Assembly: GCF_022655035.1 (NCBI RefSeq)
Contig: NZ_JALCUA010000002.1
Location: forward strand, 34,745-98,744
From: Bifidobacterium tibiigranuli
Lineage (GTDB): Bacteria > Actinomycetota > Actinomycetes > Actinomycetales > Bifidobacteriaceae
Reading direction: 5' to 3'
DNA length: 64,000 nt
How positions within the stretch are numbered: position 1 is the stretch's first letter; each line of letters opens with the position of its first letter. Under the pieces are notes generated by a model, which saw only the letters and a list, made by a program, of their open reading frames with translations, did no database searches and was not told the DNA's origin. Shown in pieces: positions 53,631 to 62,050 of this stretch. The position numbers and the translations under genes were made by a program.

Positions 53631-53753
53631 CCATGCAATTAACTCGGTATATGGACTCTCGAAACCCTCTTGACATTGCCGAGCGGTATTCTATCCAAGC
53701 ACTGGCAAAGAACCGCGGGTAGCACCCCGCCAAAAACGATGAAGGTGGTTTCG

Positions 53754-56700
53754 GTGACTTTCCACGCTCCGCTTGATCTAACGGTCCATGAAGCACAGGG
53801 CATGTATGACCCTTCGCAGGAACACGACGCATGTGGCGTGGGTATGGTCGCCACGTTGAACCGCCGCGCTGAGCGCAGAATCGTCGATAAGGCCATCGAG
53901 GTCCTCGTCAACCTCGACCATCGTGGCGCAGTCGGCGCCGAAGAGAACACCGGCGATGGCGCTGGCATTCTCATATCGATGCCGGACGAGTTCATGCGTG
54001 CTGTCATCGACGTGGAGCTTCCGCCCGAGGGCCATTACGCTGCTGGCATTGCGTTCCTCGACCGCGATATCGCAGGTTCCGGCAGGCAGGAGCAGGCCAT
54101 CGCGCAGATCGCCAAGGAAGAGGGCCTTGAGGTTCTCGCCTGGCGCGTGGTCCCTACGAACCCTGACGGACTGGGCCTGCAGGCGCTCGCATCCATGCCC
54201 TCGTTCAAGACGCTGGTCGTGGCGGACGCAAATGGTGCCGTAGGCGCAGGCACGGGCGACTTGGCTCTGGACCGCAAGACCTTCCGACTGCGCAAGCGCG
54301 TCGAGCATGAGGTCGGCGTCTACTTCGCCTCGCTCTCCGCGCGCACCATCACTTACAAGGGCATGCTCACCACGATGCAGCTCACCTCTTTCTTCCCCGA
54401 TCTCACCGACGATCGCATGAAGGCCACCATCGCCATCGTACACTCGCGCTTCTCGACCAACACCTTCCCGAGCTGGCCGCTGGCGCAGCCCTTCCGCCTC
54501 ATCGCGCACAACGGCGAAATCAACACCATCCAGGGCAATCGCAACTGGCTTTCGGCCCGTGAAGGCCGGCTCAGCTCCACACTGCTCGGCGAATTCAAGC
54601 CGCTGCTGCCCGTCGGCACTCCGGGGGCTTCGGATTCGGGCACCTTCGACGAATGCCTTGAGCTGCTGCACCTCTCCGGCCGCAGCATCACGCACGCCAT
54701 TTCGATGATGCTGCCGCCCGCCTGGGAGAAGGACGAGTCGCTCGACCCCGATATCCGCGCGTTCTACGAGTACAACAACACGCTTATCGAGCCGTGGGAC
54801 GGCCCGGCGAACATCGTCTTCACCGACGGCACGCTGGTCGGCGCGCAGCTGGACCGCAACGGCTTCAGGCCGGGGCGCTGGCAGCTCAACGACGACAACA
54901 CGGTCGTGCTCGCCTCGGAGGCCGGCGTGCTGCCCGAGATCGAGCAGGAGCACATCATATCCAAGGGTCGGCTTGAGCCCGGCAAGATGTTCCTCATCGA
55001 CACCGAGCAGGGGCGGCTGGTGCCCGATGAGGAGATCAAGGCGAATCTGGCCGCGCTGCATCCCTACCGCCAGTGGGTGGAGGGCAACAGCGTCGAGATG
55101 AGCCAGCTGCCCGCGCGCGAGCACGTACGGCATTCAGGCCAGTCGGTCCAGCGTCGTCAGCGCGCTTTCGGCTACACGCAAGAAGACCTGAAGATGCTTC
55201 TGATTCCGATGGCGAACAGCGGCAAGGAGCCACTGGGCGCGATGGGCAACGACGCGCCGATGGCGGTGCTCTCCGAACGCAGCCGCATGCTCTTCGACTA
55301 CTTCACGCAGAAGTTCGCCCAGGTCACCAACCCGCCGCTCGACTGGGAGCGCGAGGAGATTGTCACCTGCCTCGAATCAGCCATCGGCCCTGAGCCGAAC
55401 CTGCTTGAGGACTCCGAGCTGCATGCCAAGAAGATCCTCATTCCGCTGCCGATTGTGAATTCCGACGAGATGGCGCAGCTCAAGCGCCTCGACAAGGCGA
55501 AGATCCTCGGCGACTACTACCGCCCGTACATCGTCAAGGGCCTGTATCAGGTGGCCGGAGGCGGCAAGGCGCTTGAAGAGCGGCTTCAGGAGATCTTCGA
55601 CGAGATCGACGAGGCCATCGCCGGCGGCAAGAACTTCATCGTGCTTTCCGACCGCGAGTCGAACCACACCTGGGCGCCGATTCCCTCGCTGCTGCTGACG
55701 AGCGCCGTGCAGCACCATCTGCTGCGCACGCATACCCGCACGCAGATCTCGATGGCCGTCGAGGCCGGCGATGTGCGCGAGATTCACCATGTCGCGCTGC
55801 TGATCGCCTACGGCGCAGCCTGCGTGAACCCCTACCTCGCCTTCGAATCGGTCGAGGATTTAGCTAACACCGGCTACCTGTCCGTTAACGCCGAAACTGC
55901 GGTGAGAAATCTCACCAAGGCGCTGTCGACAGGCGTGCTCAAGATCATGAGCAAGATGGGCGTCTCCACGATCATGAGCTATCGCGGCGCGCAGCTGTTC
56001 GAGGCCGTGGGCCTGAGCCAGAGCGTGATCGACAAATACTTCACTGGCACCACCTCGCGCGTCGGCGGAGCCGGGCTGGACGAGATCGCCGAGGAAGTCG
56101 CTATCCGGCACCGCGTGGCCTACCCGAATCAGTGGACGGCCACGCCGCACCGCAAGCTGCGCACCGGTGGCGACTACAAGTGGCGTCGCACCGGCGAAGA
56201 CCATCTCAACGACCCCGAGTCGATTTTCCTGCTGCAGCAATCGACACAGCGCGCCGACTACGACATGTTCAAGCAGTATTCGGCGCATATCAATGACACG
56301 TCGAACCGGCTCATGACCCTGCGCGGGCTCATGTCCTTCACCGGCGACCGCAAGCCGATCGACATTGATGAGGTCGAGCCGGCCAGCGAAATCGTCAAGC
56401 GCTTCTCCACCGGCGCGATGAGCTATGGCTCGATTTCGCAGGAGGCGCACGAGACGCTGGCCATCGCGATGAACTCGATCGGCGCGCGCTCGAACTCCGG
56501 CGAAGGCGGCGAATCCGACGACCGCATAGCCGACCCGCGCCGCACCAGCCGCATCAAGCAGATCGCCTCGGCCCGCTTCGGCGTGACCAGCGACTACCTC
56601 GTGCATGCCACTGACTTGCAGATCAAGCTCGCCCAGGGCGCCAAGCCCGGCGAGGGCGGCCATCTGCCCGGGGCCAAGGTGCCGCCGTGGATTGCCAAGG

Positions 56701-58337
56701 TGCGCCATGCGACACCCGGCGTCGAGCTGATTTCCCCGCCACCGCATCACGACATCTACTCGATCGAAGACCTGAAGCAGCTTATCAACGATGCCAAGAT
56801 GGCCAATCCCAAGGCGCGCATCCATGTGAAGCTGGTCTCCGAGTTCGGCGTGGGTACCATCGCGGCCGGTGTGGCTAAATGCCATGCGGACGTGGTGCTC
56901 ATCTCCGGCTACGACGGCGGCACCGGCGCAGCTCCGCTCAATGCCATCAAGCATGCGGGCACCCCGTGGGAGATCGGCCTGTCCGAGACCCAGCAGACGC
57001 TGATTCTCAACGGTCTGCGCTCCCGCATTGTCGTGCAGTGCGACGGCGAGCTGAAAACCGGCCGCGACGTGGTGATCGCCGCGCTGCTGGGCGCCGAGGA
57101 ATTCGGCTTCGCCACGTCGGCGCTGATGGTCGAGGGCTGCGTCATGATGCGCGCATGCCATTTGAACACCTGCCCGCAGGGCATCGCCACGCAGGACCCC
57201 GAGCTGCGCGCGCGCTTCACCGGCAAGCCCGAGCATGTCATCAACTTCTTCATGTTCATCGCCCAGGAAGTACGTGAGCTGCTCGCCCAGCTCGGCTTCC
57301 ATACGCTCGAAGAGGCGGTGGGCCATGTCGAATGCCTCGATCAGAACGAGGCCGTGACCCGCTGGAAGGCTGACGGCATCGATCTGTCCAACGTGCTCAT
57401 GCAGCCCGGCCCTACGCCCGGCACGATTCTGCACCAGACCATCGAGCAGAACCACGAGCTTGAGAAGGCTCTTGACAACCGGCTCATCGACCTGGCTCGC
57501 TCGGCGCTCGAGCGCCGGGAACCGGTGCGCATCGAAGTGCCTATCCGCAATGTCAACCGCACGGTGGGCACGATGGTCGGCTACGAGATCACCAACCGGT
57601 ACGGTGCCGAAGGACTGCCCGACGACACCATCGACATGACCTTGCACGGTTCGGGCGGCCAGTCCATCGGCGCGTTCATCCCGCGCGGCGAAACCCTGCG
57701 CGTCTACGGCGAAGTCAACGACTACGCAGGCAAGGGCCTGTCCGGAGGCCGCCTGATCGTGCGCCCCGAGGAAGGCGCGAACTTCGATCCGCATGAGAAT
57801 GTCATCGCGGGCAATGTCGCCGGATTCGGCGCGACCTCGGGCGAAATGTTCATCGCAGGAAGCGCCGGCGAGCGCTTCGGCGTGCGCAACGGCGGAGCCA
57901 CCTTCGTGGTCGAAGGCGTGGGCGACCACGGCTGCGAGTACATGACCGGCGGCACCGTGGCGATTCTCGGGCCCACCGGGCGCAATCTCGGCGCCGGCTT
58001 CTCCGGCGGCGAGGTCTACGTGCTCGATCTGGACATGGGCAAGGTCAATCCGCAAGCCGTGAAAACCGGTGCGCTGCTCTTCCAGCGGCTGGATGATGAG
58101 CAGGAGCGCTTCGTCCACGATCTGGTCAAGCGCCATGCCGAGGAGACCGGATCGCAGTTCGCGGCGGAGCTGCTGGGCGACTGGGAGCGCACCGCCGCCC
58201 GCTTCACCCACGTGGTGCCGAGGCAGTATGTGGCGATGACCGACGCGATGCGCCGGGCCGAGGCACAGCACGTTGATTTCAATGCGCCGGGCGCATGGGA
58301 GCATGTGTACGAGCAAGTCATGGAAGGAGCCCACTGA
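53754..58337 (+). CDS. gltB: Glutamate synthase large subunit
   Basis: HDACGVG, HRGA, HSRFSTNTFPSW.LAQPFR, KFAQVTNPP, QGAKPGEGGHL, CHLNTCPQGIATQ, GXGXG domain. The GTG start is tentative. Confidence 0.97.
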   Translation: MTFHAPLDLTVHEAQGMYDPSQEHDACGVGMVATLNRRAERRIVDKAIEVLVNLDHRGAVGAEENTGDGAGILISMPDEFMRAVIDVELPPEGHYAAGIAFLDRDIAGSGRQEQAIAQIAKEEGLEVLAWRVVPTNPDGLGLQALASMPSFKTLVVADANGAVGAGTGDLALDRKTFRLRKRVEHEVGVYFASLSARTITYKGMLTTMQLTSFFPDLTDDRMKATIAIVHSRFSTNTFPSWPLAQPFRLIAHNGEINTIQGNRNWLSAREGRLSSTLLGEFKPLLPVGTPGASDSGTFDECLELLHLSGRSITHAISMMLPPAWEKDESLDPDIRAFYEYNNTLIEPWDGPANIVFTDGTLVGAQLDRNGFRPGRWQLNDDNTVVLASEAGVLPEIEQEHIISKGRLEPGKMFLIDTEQGRLVPDEEIKANLAALHPYRQWVEGNSVEMSQLPAREHVRHSGQSVQRRQRAFGYTQEDLKMLLIPMANSGKEPLGAMGNDAPMAVLSERSRMLFDYFTQKFAQVTNPPLDWEREEIVTCLESAIGPEPNLLEDSELHAKKILIPLPIVNSDEMAQLKRLDKAKILGDYYRPYIVKGLYQVAGGGKALEERLQEIFDEIDEAIAGGKNFIVLSDRESNHTWAPIPSLLLTSAVQHHLLRTHTRTQISMAVEAGDVREIHHVALLIAYGAACVNPYLAFESVEDLANTGYLSVNAETAVRNLTKALSTGVLKIMSKMGVSTIMSYRGAQLFEAVGLSQSVIDKYFTGTTSRVGGAGLDEIAEEVAIRHRVAYPNQWTATPHRKLRTGGDYKWRRTGEDHLNDPESIFLLQQSTQRADYDMFKQYSAHINDTSNRLMTLRGLMSFTGDRKPIDIDEVEPASEIVKRFSTGAMSYGSISQEAHETLAIAMNSIGARSNSGEGGESDDRIADPRRTSRIKQIASARFGVTSDYLVHATDLQIKLAQGAKPGEGGHLPGAKVPPWIAKVRHATPGVELISPPPHHDIYSIEDLKQLINDAKMANPKARIHVKLVSEFGVGTIAAGVAKCHADVVLISGYDGGTGAAPLNAIKHAGTPWEIGLSETQQTLILNGLRSRIVVQCDGELKTGRDVVIAALLGAEEFGFATSALMVEGCVMMRACHLNTCPQGIATQDPELRARFTGKPEHVINFFMFIAQEVRELLAQLGFHTLEEAVGHVECLDQNEAVTRWKADGIDLSNVLMQPGPTPGTILHQTIEQNHELEKALDNRLIDLARSALERREPVRIEVPIRNVNRTVGTMVGYEITNRYGAEGLPDDTIDMTLHGSGGQSIGAFIPRGETLRVYGEVNDYAGKGLSGGRLIVRPEEGANFDPHENVIAGNVAGFGATSGEMFIAGSAGERFGVRNGGATFVVEGVGDHGCEYMTGGTVAILGPTGRNLGAGFSGGEVYVLDLDMGKVNPQAVKTGALLFQRLDDEQERFVHDLVKRHAEETGSQFAAELLGDWERTAARFTHVVPRQYVAMTDAMRRAEAQHVDFNAPGAWEHVYEQVMEGAH

Positions 58338-58338
58338 T

Positions 58339-59886
58339 ATGAGCGACCCCAGAGGATTCCTCAAAGTCCGCACGCGCCGCGAGATGGCCGAACGGCCTGT
58401 CGAAGAGCGCATCAAGGACTGGTTCGACGTGCATGCCGAGCATGGCGCGCAGCCGTGGACCCGCGAGCAGGCTTCGCGCTGCATGGATTGCGGCACCCCG
58501 TTCTGCATGACCGGCTGCCCGCTGGGCAACGTCATCCCCGAGTTCAACGACCTGGTCAGCCAGGGCAAGTGGGAGGACGCCTACAACCGCCTTTCCATGA
58601 CGAACAACTTCCCCGAGGCGACCGGCCGCGTATGCCCGGCGCCGTGCGAGCACGCCTGCGTGCTGGCGATTCACCAGCCGGCCACGGCCATCAAGAACGA
58701 CGAGGTCACGATTATCGATCAGGCCTTCGCGCTCGGCTATGTCAAGCCGATGCCGCCGCAGCGCCTCACCGACATGACCATCGCTATCGTCGGCTCCGGA
58801 CCTGCCGGCCTGGCCTGCGCCCAGCAGCTGACTCGCGCCGGTCACACCGTCGTCGTGTATGAGCGCGACGACGCGATCGGCGGGCTCATGCGCTACGGCA
58901 TCCCGAATTTCAAGCTCGACAAGCATCTGCTCGACGAACGCATCGCGCAGATGGAGGCTGAGGGAACCCGCTTCATGACCAACATGGAAATCGGCAAGAA
59001 CATCAGCTGGGATGAGCTGCGTTCGCGCTATGACGCCGTCGTGGTAGCCATCGGTTCCGGCGCGCCGCGCGACGTTGCCATTCCCGGGCGCGACCTGGAA
59101 GGCATCCACTTCGCGATGGACTTCCTGCCCGACACGACCCGCCGGCTCTACGGCGTGCAGCCGCACGGCGACATCGACGCCAACGGCAAGCATGTCGTCA
59201 TCATCGGCGGCGGCGACACCGGCTCGGACTGCCTGGGAGCTTCGATTCGCCAGGGCGCGAAGGACGTGACCGTGCTGCAGATCAATCCGCAGGAGCCGCT
59301 TGAGCGCACGGAGAGCCATCCGTGGCCGACCTACGCGCGCACCTATCAGAAGACCACATCGATGCAGGAGGGCGGCGAATACCTCTACAACACCGATTCG
59401 GTGAGCTTCGAAGGCATCGAGGACGATATGGATCGTGTTGCCGTCGACGATACTTCGGTGCCCGCCGGATTCGTGGCGGACGATCAGGGCCATGTCACTG
59501 GGGTCAAGATCATCAGCGTCGAGCTTGACGAGAACGGCAAGCGCGTGCATGTTCCCGGCACAGAGCGCGTGCTCCCCGCTGATTTGGTGCTGATATCCGT
59601 AGGCTTCGCGCACCCGGACACGACCACGCTGCTTGATCAGCTGCCCGTCGAGCTGGATGGACGCGGCAACGTGTCGCGCGACGCCGAATTCTCCACCACG
59701 CAGGACGGCGTCTTCGTGTGCGGCGATGCCGGACGCGGCCAGAGCCTGGTCGTGTGGGCCATCTCCGAGGGTCGCAGCTGCGCCGCATCGGTCGACAAAT
59801 ACCTCACCGGCGTCACCGAACTGCCCTCGCCGATCGCGCCGACCGATCGCCCCATGTCACTGCCGCTCAAGGCATTGGTTCACTAA
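58339..59886 (+). CDS. gltD: Glutamate synthase small subunit
   Basis: RCMDCGTPFC..GCPLGN, GRVCPAPCE, GSGPAGLA, IIGGGDTGSDC, GDAGRGQSLVVWAI.EGR. Confidence 0.96.
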   Translation: MSDPRGFLKVRTRREMAERPVEERIKDWFDVHAEHGAQPWTREQASRCMDCGTPFCMTGCPLGNVIPEFNDLVSQGKWEDAYNRLSMTNNFPEATGRVCPAPCEHACVLAIHQPATAIKNDEVTIIDQAFALGYVKPMPPQRLTDMTIAIVGSGPAGLACAQQLTRAGHTVVVYERDDAIGGLMRYGIPNFKLDKHLLDERIAQMEAEGTRFMTNMEIGKNISWDELRSRYDAVVVAIGSGAPRDVAIPGRDLEGIHFAMDFLPDTTRRLYGVQPHGDIDANGKHVVIIGGGDTGSDCLGASIRQGAKDVTVLQINPQEPLERTESHPWPTYARTYQKTTSMQEGGEYLYNTDSVSFEGIEDDMDRVAVDDTSVPAGFVADDQGHVTGVKIISVELDENGKRVHVPGTERVLPADLVLISVGFAHPDTTTLLDQLPVELDGRGNVSRDAEFSTTQDGVFVCGDAGRGQSLVVWAISEGRSCAASVDKYLTGVTELPSPIAPTDRPMSLPLKALVH

Positions 59887-59909
59887 ACCACCGAGTTACT
59901 TTCGGCGTG

Positions 59910-59947
59910 CGAAAGGGGCGGCAGCTATTAGGCTGCCGCCCCTTTCG
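59910..59947. terminator. Bidirectional terminator between gltD and fdh
   Basis: 16-bp stem CGAAAGGGGCGGCAGC/GCTGCCGCCCCTTTCG. Confidence 0.8.
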
Positions 59948-60021
59948 TGACGTGTTTACCTGTTTGCTTGAGTCAGATACTGTAGGTTTCTAGGCCCCCA
60001 GACTTCCAGATTTCCAGCAGG

Positions 60022-61215
60022 TCAGGCTTTTTCGCCGCTGCCGGGGCTTGCCTGCCCCTTCGTCACCTCGTAGGATTTTGCGCCGGTGCCGGCCAGCGCG
60101 CCGCCCTGCGCGATGATGTACTCGTCGCGAATCGGCTCATCGTCGAGGAAGTCCTCGAGGATTTCACGGGTTCCGGCCGCGTAACGTGCCTGCGCTGACA
60201 AGGTCGTGCCCGAGATGTGCGGCGTCATGCCTTCGTGCGGCATGGTCCGCCACGGATGGTTCTCGGGCGCGGGCTGCGGATACCACACGTCGCCCGCGTA
60301 CCCGGCGAGCTGGCCGGAATTGAGCGCGTCGACAATGGCGTCGCGATCCACAAGCTCGCCGCGGCCGTTGTTGACAATGTAGGAGCCGCGCTTCATCGAC
60401 GCAATCACCGAGGTATTGAACATGTGGCGGGTTGCGGCGTACAACGGCGTTTCCAGGACCGCGATGTCAACGACTTTCGCCAGCTCCTTGACATCCGGGT
60501 AATAAGTGGCACCGAGGCTCTGCTCATAATCGGCAGGCAGCTGGTGACGCTGGGTGTACGCCAGCTTGACGCCGAATGGCTTGAGCCGTTCGAGCACCGC
60601 CTTGCCGATGCGCCCTGCGCCCACGACGCCGACGGTCATGCCTTCCAAGTCGTACGCGCGCGAAACGCAATCGGCGATATTCCAGCCGCCCTTGCGCGCC
60701 CAGTCATGCGACGGCAGGTAGTTGCGCACCAGCGCCAGCACCTGCATGACCGCATGCTCGGCCACGCTGATGCTGTTGCAGTAGGTCACTTCGGCCACGG
60801 TCACGTTATGCTCGTTGGCCGCGTTCAAGTCCACATGGTCGGAGCCGATGCCAGCGGTTATCGCCAGCTTGAGCTTCTTGGCCTTCGCGAAGCGTTCGGC
60901 GGTCAGGTAGGCCGGCCAGAACGGCTGGGAGATGACGACATCGGCGTCGGGCAGCTCCTTATCGAACTGCGAATCCGGCCCTTCCTTGTCGGAGGTGACC
61001 ACGAATTCGACATTGCGGTCCTTGAGGAACTTCGTCAGTCCGAGCGCGCCCGAAACCGAGCCGAGCAGCTCGCCGGGCTTGAAATCAATCGCCTTGGGGG
61101 AGGGCAGCGTCGACCCATCAGGGTACGAGCTGAGCTCTGGAACGGTGTCGCGCGCGTATTTCGGCGGATACCCATCGACGGGGTCCGGATACAGCACACA
61201 TAATACCTTGGTCAT
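60022..61215 (-). CDS. fdh: Metal-independent NAD(P)+-dependent formate dehydrogenase, NADP+-type signature
   Basis: VLYPDP..GYPP.YAR, ELLGSVSG.LGL, ISQPFWPAYL, TAGIGSDHVDL, GAGRIG, DVWYPQPAP..HPWR.MP...MTPHISG; YTQRH at the cofactor-specificity site. Confidence 0.95.
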   Translation of the reverse strand: MTKVLCVLYPDPVDGYPPKYARDTVPELSSYPDGSTLPSPKAIDFKPGELLGSVSGALGLTKFLKDRNVEFVVTSDKEGPDSQFDKELPDADVVISQPFWPAYLTAERFAKAKKLKLAITAGIGSDHVDLNAANEHNVTVAEVTYCNSISVAEHAVMQVLALVRNYLPSHDWARKGGWNIADCVSRAYDLEGMTVGVVGAGRIGKAVLERLKPFGVKLAYTQRHQLPADYEQSLGATYYPDVKELAKVVDIAVLETPLYAATRHMFNTSVIASMKRGSYIVNNGRGELVDRDAIVDALNSGQLAGYAGDVWYPQPAPENHPWRTMPHEGMTPHISGTTLSAQARYAAGTREILEDFLDDEPIRDEYIIAQGGALAGTGAKSYEVTKGQASPGSGEKA

Positions 61216-61591
61216 AATCTATGCTCCTTTGCATATATATGCGGCCATAGCGCGCGTTTGCAAGAGACATAGCCAGACACCATGCAGTCCTGCACAGTGC
61301 ATTTCTCCACACAGTGCAGTCCCACACGCAGTGCATTCGCAACCGCCACAGCCTGAAACGTCGAATTGCTTCGAGCTTCACTTCGGTTATAGCACTTATC
61401 CGTTCACCATAAGCTGACTTGGAAGGAGCGCGAGCTTATGGCGTTTATTGGTTCCGGTTTCCATCATCGCGTGCTGTTTCATCTGCGCTCGTTGTGCTCC
61501 ATGCGACGATGAGTTCAGCGAGCCTCATGCCTGCCTACATGGTTGCGGTACACTGGAACGCGGAAAACCGTTGTTTCATGGAGGAGAAGCT

Positions 61592-62050
61592 ATGCCGAAT
61601 CGCGCCGAACGCCGGGCTCAGGACAAGCGCAGCCGCAGGGGAGTGCCTGCGCAATACGACCAGACGCAGGGGCGTGCGCGGTCGGATATGATCGACGAAT
61701 ATGCCTTGCAGGACAAGTCGCGCCGGCTCGAAGAACATGTCGACGGCGAATGGAAGCCCTCGGCCAGCGTCACCGACACGACCGGCGATAGGCTGGACGA
61801 CATTGAGATGCGCGATCCTGACATCATCAAGCCGCCGCATTCGGTGCGTCAGGCGTTCCGCATCGTCAGCTGGACGCTCATCAGCCTTTCAGTGATTGCA
61901 TTCCTCGTCATCATGTGGCTGCCGAGCCATCCGCTGTGGCTGATCGCCACGATCAGCGCGGTGTTCGTCGTTGCTGTGCTGAGCCTGTTCGTCGTGGCGG
62001 GAGACCCGAAGCACAACCCCAATCTCGACGCGAACGGCACTGCGGTATAG
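61592..62050 (+). CDS. Conserved membrane protein (two C-terminal TM helices)
   Basis: GGAG RBS; charged N-terminus (MPNRAERRAQ...) followed by two hydrophobic helices and 'NPNLD.NGTAV'. Confidence 0.7.
   Translation: MPNRAERRAQDKRSRRGVPAQYDQTQGRARSDMIDEYALQDKSRRLEEHVDGEWKPSASVTDTTGDRLDDIEMRDPDIIKPPHSVRQAFRIVSWTLISLSVIAFLVIMWLPSHPLWLIATISAVFVVAVLSLFVVAGDPKHNPNLDANGTAV

Follow-up and report, generated by a model that had tools for sequence, protein, structure and literature searches.

We report that a 64,000-nucleotide stretch of Bifidobacterium DNA (hereafter the window, meaning the whole stretch analysed) carries at positions 60022..61215, on the minus strand, a coding sequence (CDS) for a 397-aa metal-independent NAD(P)+-dependent formate dehydrogenase (FDH; protein P0001), which was assigned from its open reading frame (ORF), hidden Markov model and structure matches. 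We consider it quite probable that this gene encodes a functional, stand-alone, metal-independent FDH that is like the enzyme of Lentilactobacillus buchneri NRRL B-30929 (LbFDH), makes NADPH, and was acquired horizontally. That bifidobacteria excrete formate is textbook knowledge. FDHs that have Gln at position 221 and prefer NADP+ have been characterised before, and what is unexpected here is the host.

The FDH ORF is whole, running from ATG to TGA over 397 codons for amino acids. The protein has the two-domain architecture of its family, with Pfam matches to 2-Hacid_dh_C (PF02826; 1.5e-50) and 2-Hacid_dh (PF00389), and scored 667.4 bits against the NF005750 equivalog ('NAD-dependent formate dehydrogenase'; curated cut-off of 329 bits), covering residues 1-384 of the 386-position model. 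Its top matches among solved structures were bacterial FDHs (E ~1e-184). Compared with the FDH of Pseudomonas sp. 101 (PseFDH), the window protein was 69% identical in an alignment that is gap-free to about residue 383. Window residue numbers equal PseFDH numbers plus one, and determinant and catalytic positions are quoted below in PseFDH numbering. The catalytic and formate-binding residues (P97, F98, I122, N146, R284, D308, Q313, H332, S334, and G335) are all conserved with respect to PseFDH, and the PF[HW]P motif described for FDHs (PMC6303947) is present as QPFWPAY. Every feature of the metal-independent FDH family that can be looked for in a sequence was thus found in the window protein. 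The gene is under purifying selection, with ratios of nonsynonymous to synonymous substitution rates (dN/dS) of 0.047 against Bifidobacterium tibiigranuli TMW 2.2057 (genome G138), 0.026 against a third bifidobacterial lineage (contig L088), and 0.07 against a metagenomic relative (contig L092). These values (0.03-0.07) support the view that the gene is functional.

With regard to the cofactor, residues 220-224 of the window FDH read YTQRH, where PseFDH has YTDRH. The Gln222 codon (CAG; 60550..60552, minus strand; from sequence and alignment) is the equivalent of Asp221 of PseFDH, a residue that confers NAD+ specificity by hydrogen-bonding the adenosine ribose hydroxyls and repelling the 2'-phosphate of NADP+ (PMC4410396). 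The corresponding NADP+ pattern combines Arg222 with a residue at 221 that has no charge (PMC4410396), and the window FDH retains Arg222 (window Arg223) beside its uncharged Gln. The first Gly of the GxGxxG motif (GVVGAGRIG) is Gly199, equivalent to Ala198 of PseFDH (codon 60619..60621, minus strand), and Lys380 is equivalent to His379 (codon 60076..60078, minus strand); both were placed by alignment, with coordinates computed from the CDS start. At position 260, Ala stands in place of the acidic ribose ligand Glu260. An earlier reading of this DNA, made from the sequence alone, had described a complete metal-independent FDH with YTQRH and Gln222 at 60550-60552, and the ORF, codon, and alignment agree with this description in every detail. 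The Gln-for-Asp signature on which that reading relied is real, and it is accompanied by the further determinants Gly198, Arg222, and Lys379 as well as the lack of an acidic residue at 260.

We compared seven determinant positions (198/221/222/223/255/379/380) between the window FDH and enzymes of known cofactor use. They read ADRHCHS in NAD+-specific PseFDH, GQRHAKV in its engineered variant V9, GQRHTKS in the window FDH, and GQRHAKS in the L. buchneri cluster. When PseFDH was subjected to selection in vivo, the variants converged on A198G, D221Q, C255A, H379K, and S380V, with D221Q found in all winning variants and H379K forming a salt bridge to the 2'-phosphate (bioRxiv 10.1101/2020.04.02.022350). 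The window FDH naturally has three of these five substitutions that make PseFDH an NADP+ enzyme (Gly198, Gln221, and Lys379). Wild-type PseFDH is NAD+-specific and had no initial NADP+ activity, and D221Q on top of A198G took it from zero to a kcat/Km of 45 s-1 mM-1 for NADP+ (bioRxiv 10.1101/2020.04.02.022350).

The closest characterised enzyme is consistent with this pattern. The sequence-only reading had described a close resemblance to the L. buchneri enzyme along its whole length, and this holds: the window FDH and the L. buchneri cluster member AEB72361.1 share 77% identity (88% positives) over 395 residues with 0 gaps. According to PMC13746584, citing Alpdagtas 2018, LbFDH has a kcat/Km of 29.25 s-1 mM-1 for NADP+ and an NADP+/NAD+ specificity ratio of 27.9. 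All of the sequence features of the LbFDH-like NADP+ subgroup (uncharged residue at 221 with Arg222, Gly198, a basic residue at 379, and placement in the clade) were found in the window FDH. Based on the signature residues and the 77%-identical, characterised LbFDH, the window enzyme is most likely NADP+-preferring, or dual-specific with an NADP+ bias.

LbFDH and the window FDH fall in the same well-supported clade, are of nearly the same length (398 vs 397 aa), are encoded by stand-alone genes, and have Gly198, Gln221, Arg222, His223, Lys379, and Ser380 in common. They differ at residue 255 (Ala in LbFDH, Thr in the window FDH), 258 (His vs Tyr), and 260 (Gln vs Ala). Their contexts also differ, with acetolactate and 3-hydroxyacyl-CoA dehydrogenase-like genes near the former and gltBD beside the latter, and so do their hosts, since the window FDH resides in a high-GC actinobacterium and has a G+C content at third codon positions (GC3) of 0.82. 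The cofactor preference of LbFDH was measured kinetically, whereas that of the window FDH is predicted from sequence. The nearest low-GC relatives are the metagenomic Ligilactobacillus-type proteins P0004 and P0005, which are 82% identical and have an identical GQRHTKS; however, their genes either directly follow pntAB or are carried on plasmid-like DNA that retains part of pntB, and have a GC3 of 0.35-0.37. Relative to engineered V9, which has the same fold and catalytic residues, the window FDH natively has Gly198, Gln221, and Lys379 and is without Cys255, but has Ser380 and Thr255 where V9 has Val380 and Ala255. The Burkholderia stabilis 15516 FDH, of the same family, also accepts NADP+ naturally (PMC4410396, PMC6303947) but comes from a different, proteobacterial lineage. 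Wild-type PseFDH (PDB 2NAC/2NAD/2GO1) is alike in family, length, and catalytic residues, which are identical, and differs in having Asp221, Ala198, Cys255, His379, and Glu260.

Our six-frame search of one genome per species detected the FDH gene in 2/151 Bifidobacterium genomes and 2/236 Bifidobacteriaceae genomes (17 genera). The two carriers were the window genome and B. tibiigranuli TMW 2.2057 (G138), a water-kefir isolate. Further metagenomic members belong to the same 90% cluster and include the third bifidobacterial lineage, which is known from a metagenome-assembled genome (MAG); a 3.08-Mb contig of this lineage matches BIF2, a MAG of B. tibiigranuli obtained from a milk-permeate bioreactor. 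The gene is thus rare in the genus, and the wide, vertically inherited occurrence that would have spoken against the sequence-only reading was not found. FDHs were present in 21 of the 401 Actinomycetota genomes sampled, none of them more than 68% identical to the window FDH, and Asp221 was kept in 9 of the 10 actinobacterial FDHs examined. Lactobacillar FDHs were 75-82% identical to the window FDH. Among PLSDB plasmids we found no Q-type FDH, and the best matches there were D-type (<=68% identity), from Pseudonocardia and Sinorhizobium.

A quick tree and a careful IQ-TREE analysis (LG+C20+F+G4 with posterior mean site frequencies, PMSF) gave the same nesting. The three bifidobacterial FDHs group with the 90%-identical metagenomic FDH of L092 (support 100/98), and together these join the Ligilactobacillus-type P0004, P0005, and P0009 (97/96). 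P0004 was assigned to Ligilactobacillus from its adjoining aldolase, which is in a 90% cluster with those of L. acidipiscis, L. pobuzihii, and L. pabuli. The surrounding clade otherwise comprises Sporolactobacillus and Lactobacillaceae, with Gln or Lys at 221 in every member, and this Q/K clade, which holds both LbFDH and the window FDH, contains 55 rows (Shimodaira-Hasegawa-like approximate likelihood ratio test, SH-aLRT, 99 in the quick tree). FDHs from the remaining Actinomycetota fall into a clade of their own (100/99). Grouping of the Bifidobacterium FDHs with them was rejected by the approximately unbiased (AU) test (p = 4.3e-6; log-likelihood difference, delta lnL, of 334).

The insertion site points in the same direction as the tree. 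Its conserved left flank is gltD, encoding the small (NADPH-binding) glutamate synthase subunit (58336..59886, plus strand; from the Pfam content of the L083 equivalent), and its conserved right flank is hyp200, an ORF for a conserved hypothetical membrane protein (61448..62050, plus strand; 152 aa according to other callers) that is divergent from FDH. Upstream of gltD lies gltB for the large glutamate synthase subunit (53670..58337, plus strand; GATase_2, Glu_syn_central, Glu_synthase, and GXGXG), the true start of which may lie further downstream. Both glt genes converge on FDH, with a 135-bp spacer between gltD and FDH. In 9 of 13 FDH-less bifidobacteria, the site was empty, with the order gltB-gltD-hyp200-GT4-ABC and at most ~70-210 bp from gltD to the conserved part of hyp200; gltD orthologues were 73-78% identical in the FDH-less bifidobacteria. 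The gap between gltD and hyp200 in the window measures ~1.7 kb and contains only FDH, on the opposite strand, with its 5' region and 3' spacer. Other Bifidobacterium species have different cargo in the same gap, namely a ~300-aa conserved secreted protein (2 genomes) or, in another species, a histidine kinase with a LuxR-type regulator (loci L118:2967-3872, L120:2634-3572, and L119:5797-7724). Given this differing cargo across species, the gap between gltD and hyp200 is a variable, recurrent integration hotspot.

Together, the patchy distribution, the empty sites, the nesting within Bacillota, and the AU test support horizontal acquisition of the FDH from lactobacillus-like Bacillota. The gene has a GC content of 63.2% and a GC3 of 0.82, near the GC3 of 0.84 for both gltB and gltD, and in line with the GC3 of 0.85 in L092, whereas the GC3 of lactobacillar relatives is 0.21-0.37. 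Three observations indicate either an old transfer or passage through a high-GC actinobacterial carrier: this host-like GC3, the synonymous divergence (dS) of ~0.93 between the window FDH and that of L092, and the high GC and mobile-element genes of the contig that holds the nearest copy. The sequence-only reading had suggested an exchange with lactobacilli and had also observed that the GC looked host-like. The phylogeny, the AU test result, and the sites left empty in relatives bear out such an exchange, though not a recent one; the host-like composition was correctly seen, and is accounted for by the age of the transfer or by a high-GC carrier. The FDHs of the window and G138 have diverged to the same extent as their flanking genes (~99% protein identity), and dN/dS within the clade is 0.03-0.05, which fits one acquisition event and subsequent vertical inheritance of a working gene.

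Several observations weigh against our reading of an acquired, NADPH-making enzyme. Gln at 221 loosens specificity without guaranteeing it, and some natural FDHs are only dual-specific (PMC6303947). Residue 380 is Ser and not the engineered Val, and the high NADP+ affinity of V9 depended on S380V (bioRxiv 10.1101/2020.04.02.022350). When combined with D221S, the A198G substitution made the Km values for both NADP+ and formate slightly worse (PMC4410396), so the contribution of Gly198 is context-dependent. The formate Km of FDHs is millimolar (PMC6303947), and flux in vivo may therefore be small. On the FDH strand, a simple promoter scan detected nothing resembling a sigma-70 promoter. With regard to transfer, the gene shows no foreign composition relative to its neighbours, the window has no mobile-element gene, no repeats bracket the insert, and the insert contains no transposase ORF. 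Some of these points would also favour an enzyme that effectively uses NAD+, or uses both cofactors evenly, and that serves in formate removal and CO2 production (relief of acid and formate stress, with a gain of NADH) and not in NADPH supply. The 'NAD-dependent' label given to the family by NCBIfam, the natural occurrence of dual-specific FDHs (PMC6303947), the departure of both Ser380 and Thr255 from the best engineered NADP+ variant, the description of LbFDH as acidic in PMC13746584, and the drop in formate over water-kefir fermentation (PMC11897133) are all compatible with such a role. We nevertheless regard it as unlikely, given that D221Q added to A198G was enough to give PseFDH its NADP+ activity from none (kcat/Km of 45 s-1 mM-1), that LbFDH (77% identical, with G/Q/R/H/K/S common at 6/7 determinants) prefers NADP+ ~28-fold according to the paper cited above, and that the entire clade is without Asp at 221 and has gained Lys or Arg at 379. 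Vertical inheritance, in which an FDH ancestral to the Bifidobacteriaceae or Actinomycetota was lost almost everywhere, would account for the host-like composition and for the lack of visible insertion scars in the window. It is hardly credible, however, as it needs losses in 234 of the 236 family genomes and is contradicted by the AU test against an actinobacterial grouping (p = 4.3e-6), by the lower identity to actinobacterial FDHs (<=68%) than to lactobacillar ones (75-82%), and by the clean empty sites of relatives at this locus.

A third alternative concerns the role of the FDH in its present location. The sequence-only reading had proposed that formate-derived NADPH may feed the adjacent glutamate synthase (GltBD), which would make the adjacency adaptive. 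GltBD does use NADPH, by the established biochemistry of the bacterial alpha/beta enzyme, and the adjacency of FDH and gltBD is kept in all three bifidobacterial lineages. All of the bifidobacterial copies, however, come from one insertion, and an adjacency shared through it is not independent evidence. The two units are convergent and not co-transcribed, being split by a hairpin of -42.8 kcal/mol, and unrelated cargo occupies the gap between gltD and hyp200 in other species. In no other lineage of the clade does FDH stand beside gltBD; its neighbours there include pntAB, plasmid genes, and acetolactate genes. Furthermore, one contig (L086) has an intact FDH, identical to P0122, despite the loss of gltD and ~2 kb of gltB. 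This 3.76-Mb metagenome contig shows 2.6-kb and 1.1-kb deletions relative to L083 (at L086:9194-11954) that take the hairpin, gltD, and much of gltB; the loss could be real or an assembly artefact. The contig exceeds any genome of the clade in size. The window genome also encodes pfl (pyruvate formate-lyase), zwf (glucose-6-phosphate dehydrogenase), and the NAD(P) transhydrogenase pntAB (pntB was detected in 119/151 genomes of the genus), so that zwf and pntAB provide NADPH independently of the FDH. The convergent arrangement, the hairpin, the hotspot character of the site, and these other NADPH sources all speak against the proposal, and we consider the coupling of FDH to GltBD decidedly improbable. 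The best reading of the sequence is a general role of the enzyme in formate oxidation and NADPH gain.

We envisage the following course for this acquisition and general role. An FDH of Bacillota (Lactobacillaceae/Sporolactobacillus-type), often plasmid- or mobile-borne, would have passed to the ancestor of a small fermentation-associated bifidobacterial clade that includes the window's species, B. tibiigranuli, and the third MAG lineage, possibly through a high-GC actinobacterial mobile element en route. Bringing along its ribosome-binding site and 5' region but no other gene, it would have inserted into the variable gap between gltD and the conserved membrane-protein gene, and would afterwards have been inherited vertically under purifying selection. 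In the predicted reaction, the enzyme passes a hydride directly from formate to NADP+ and releases CO2. Formate could come from the community or from the host's own pyruvate formate-lyase, the gene for which implies an internal source, and the resulting NADPH would be available for general use. The adjacency of pntAB in the nearest low-GC relatives suggests that FDH-derived NADPH was exchanged with the NADH pool in donor organisms. The host's unrelated PntAB (37-42% identical to the Ligilactobacillus one), encoded at another place in the genome, could play the same part here, exchanging FDH-derived NADPH with the NADH pool.

Several of the related FDHs lie in or near mobile DNA. The FDH closest to those of bifidobacteria from outside their clade (90% identical) is on L092:1-8089 (run DRR623195), an 8-kb contig of 61% GC, and has Gln at 379 instead of Lys. 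The contig carries a YoeB/YefM toxin-antitoxin pair and a resolvase fragment, its neighbouring proteins are all singletons in a collection of 15 billion proteins, and at the DNA level it matches nothing but short recombinase fragments on plasmids of Arthrobacter and Rhodococcus. L092 is probably actinobacterial and mobile. Among low-GC relatives, the P0009 FDH adjoins a Rep3 plasmid replication gene. P0005 is represented by one copy downstream of pntAB and one beside a resolvase, ParA, DUF5388, and a pntB remnant. In human-gut metagenomes, we also observed a Q-type FDH of 78% identity that is separated by 650 bp from a Rep3-family plasmid replication gene, in DNA of very low GC (28-32%; L142:6001-8804 and L143:894-3697), which is likely to be a lactobacillar plasmid copy. 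A Ligilactobacillus-type FDH (82% identity) was seen ~180 bp downstream of pntAA-pntAB-pntB on the same strand (L093:4928-9209, L144:950-5205, and L145:4758-7188), and on one Ligilactobacillus-type contig the FDH had only a 98-aa pntB remnant and lay by a resolvase, ParA, and DUF5388.

Such arrangements suggest a plasmid-mobilised pntAB-fdh redox module. A broader account, which we put forward only tentatively and think may well be wrong, is that a plasmid-borne pntAB-fdh(NADP+) module circulates among lactobacilli of fermented foods and the gut, and that its FDH half was captured via a high-GC actinobacterial element by an ancestor of the B. tibiigranuli group, giving it a physiologically significant formate-to-NADPH route. 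If this were true, the route and the host's own PntAB would jointly turn a by-product of pyruvate formate-lyase that is normally excreted, or formate of the community, into anabolic or antioxidant reducing power, and the redox balance of the bifid shunt would be shifted. Co-transfer of pntAB with the FDH was also considered and was rejected, given the low identity (37-42%) of the host pntAB to the Ligilactobacillus one and the presence of pntB in 119/151 genomes of the genus.

If our reading of the FDH is correct, the lineage would re-oxidise formate to CO2 with a gain of NADPH, altering its redox and carbon balance, and could use up formate in mixed fermentations such as water kefir and dairy-permeate reactors. 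Formate falls during water-kefir fermentation, although many organisms could account for the drop (PMC11897133), and in the library of papers that we searched no report links FDH to water-kefir bifidobacteria. For annotation, since the whole clade is without the NAD+-specifying Asp, the 'NAD-dependent' label of the Bacillota-plus-Bifidobacterium clade is probably wrong as to cofactor. For biocatalysis, a natural high-GC variant with three of the five engineered NADP+ substitutions as well as Tyr258 and Ala260 is a candidate for screening in NADPH regeneration, and further natural FDH variants for such a panel are already at hand in the Q/K clade. The window FDH overturns no current knowledge and is a solid but unsurprising addition to a known enzyme subgroup. 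Within the same clade, we noted a lactobacillar FDH subclade (Paucilactobacillus and Secundilactobacillus malefermentans; P0020, P0022, P0027, P0039, P0042, P0044-P0046, P0049, P0050, and P0052) that reads YTKRH, with Lys at 221 and Pro at 255. The Lys221 of these proteins would place a positive charge at the 2'-phosphate site.

Local signals around the FDH were read from the sequence and its folding. A Shine-Dalgarno-like AAGGAG lies 8 nt upstream of the FDH ATG (61224..61229, minus strand) and recurs in L092 as well as in each of the three bifidobacterial lineages. Further into the 5' region, Tandem Repeats Finder detected about three tandem 15-17-bp repeats (61283..61338, minus strand; repeat families D4/D5) that are ACTGCACTGTGTGGAG-like, with a plus-strand consensus of approximately CACAGTGCATTCCCACA. 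These repeats may form a candidate operator or regulator-binding array. They are present but variable in G138, mostly deleted in L088, and absent from L092, and on account of the latter two we rejected the idea that they are a general mobile promoter cassette. The simple scan reported no canonical terminator. Between the convergent stops of gltD and FDH, a GC-rich hairpin (59905..59953; inverted repeat I2) was found by reading and folding the sequence. The hairpin is perfect, with 16-bp arms at 59910-59947 (-42.8 kcal/mol, z = -7.9), and both G138 and L088 have it too. A clear U-tract is missing, but the hairpin probably serves as a terminator in both directions. In the third lineage (L088:1-8000 and L089), the FDH (P0123) has 399 aa and a rewritten N-terminus (MANIKVL...), and a LuxR-type response regulator, IS21/rve transposases, and a class IIi bacteriocin cluster take the place of the conserved side of the locus with hyp200 and GT4.

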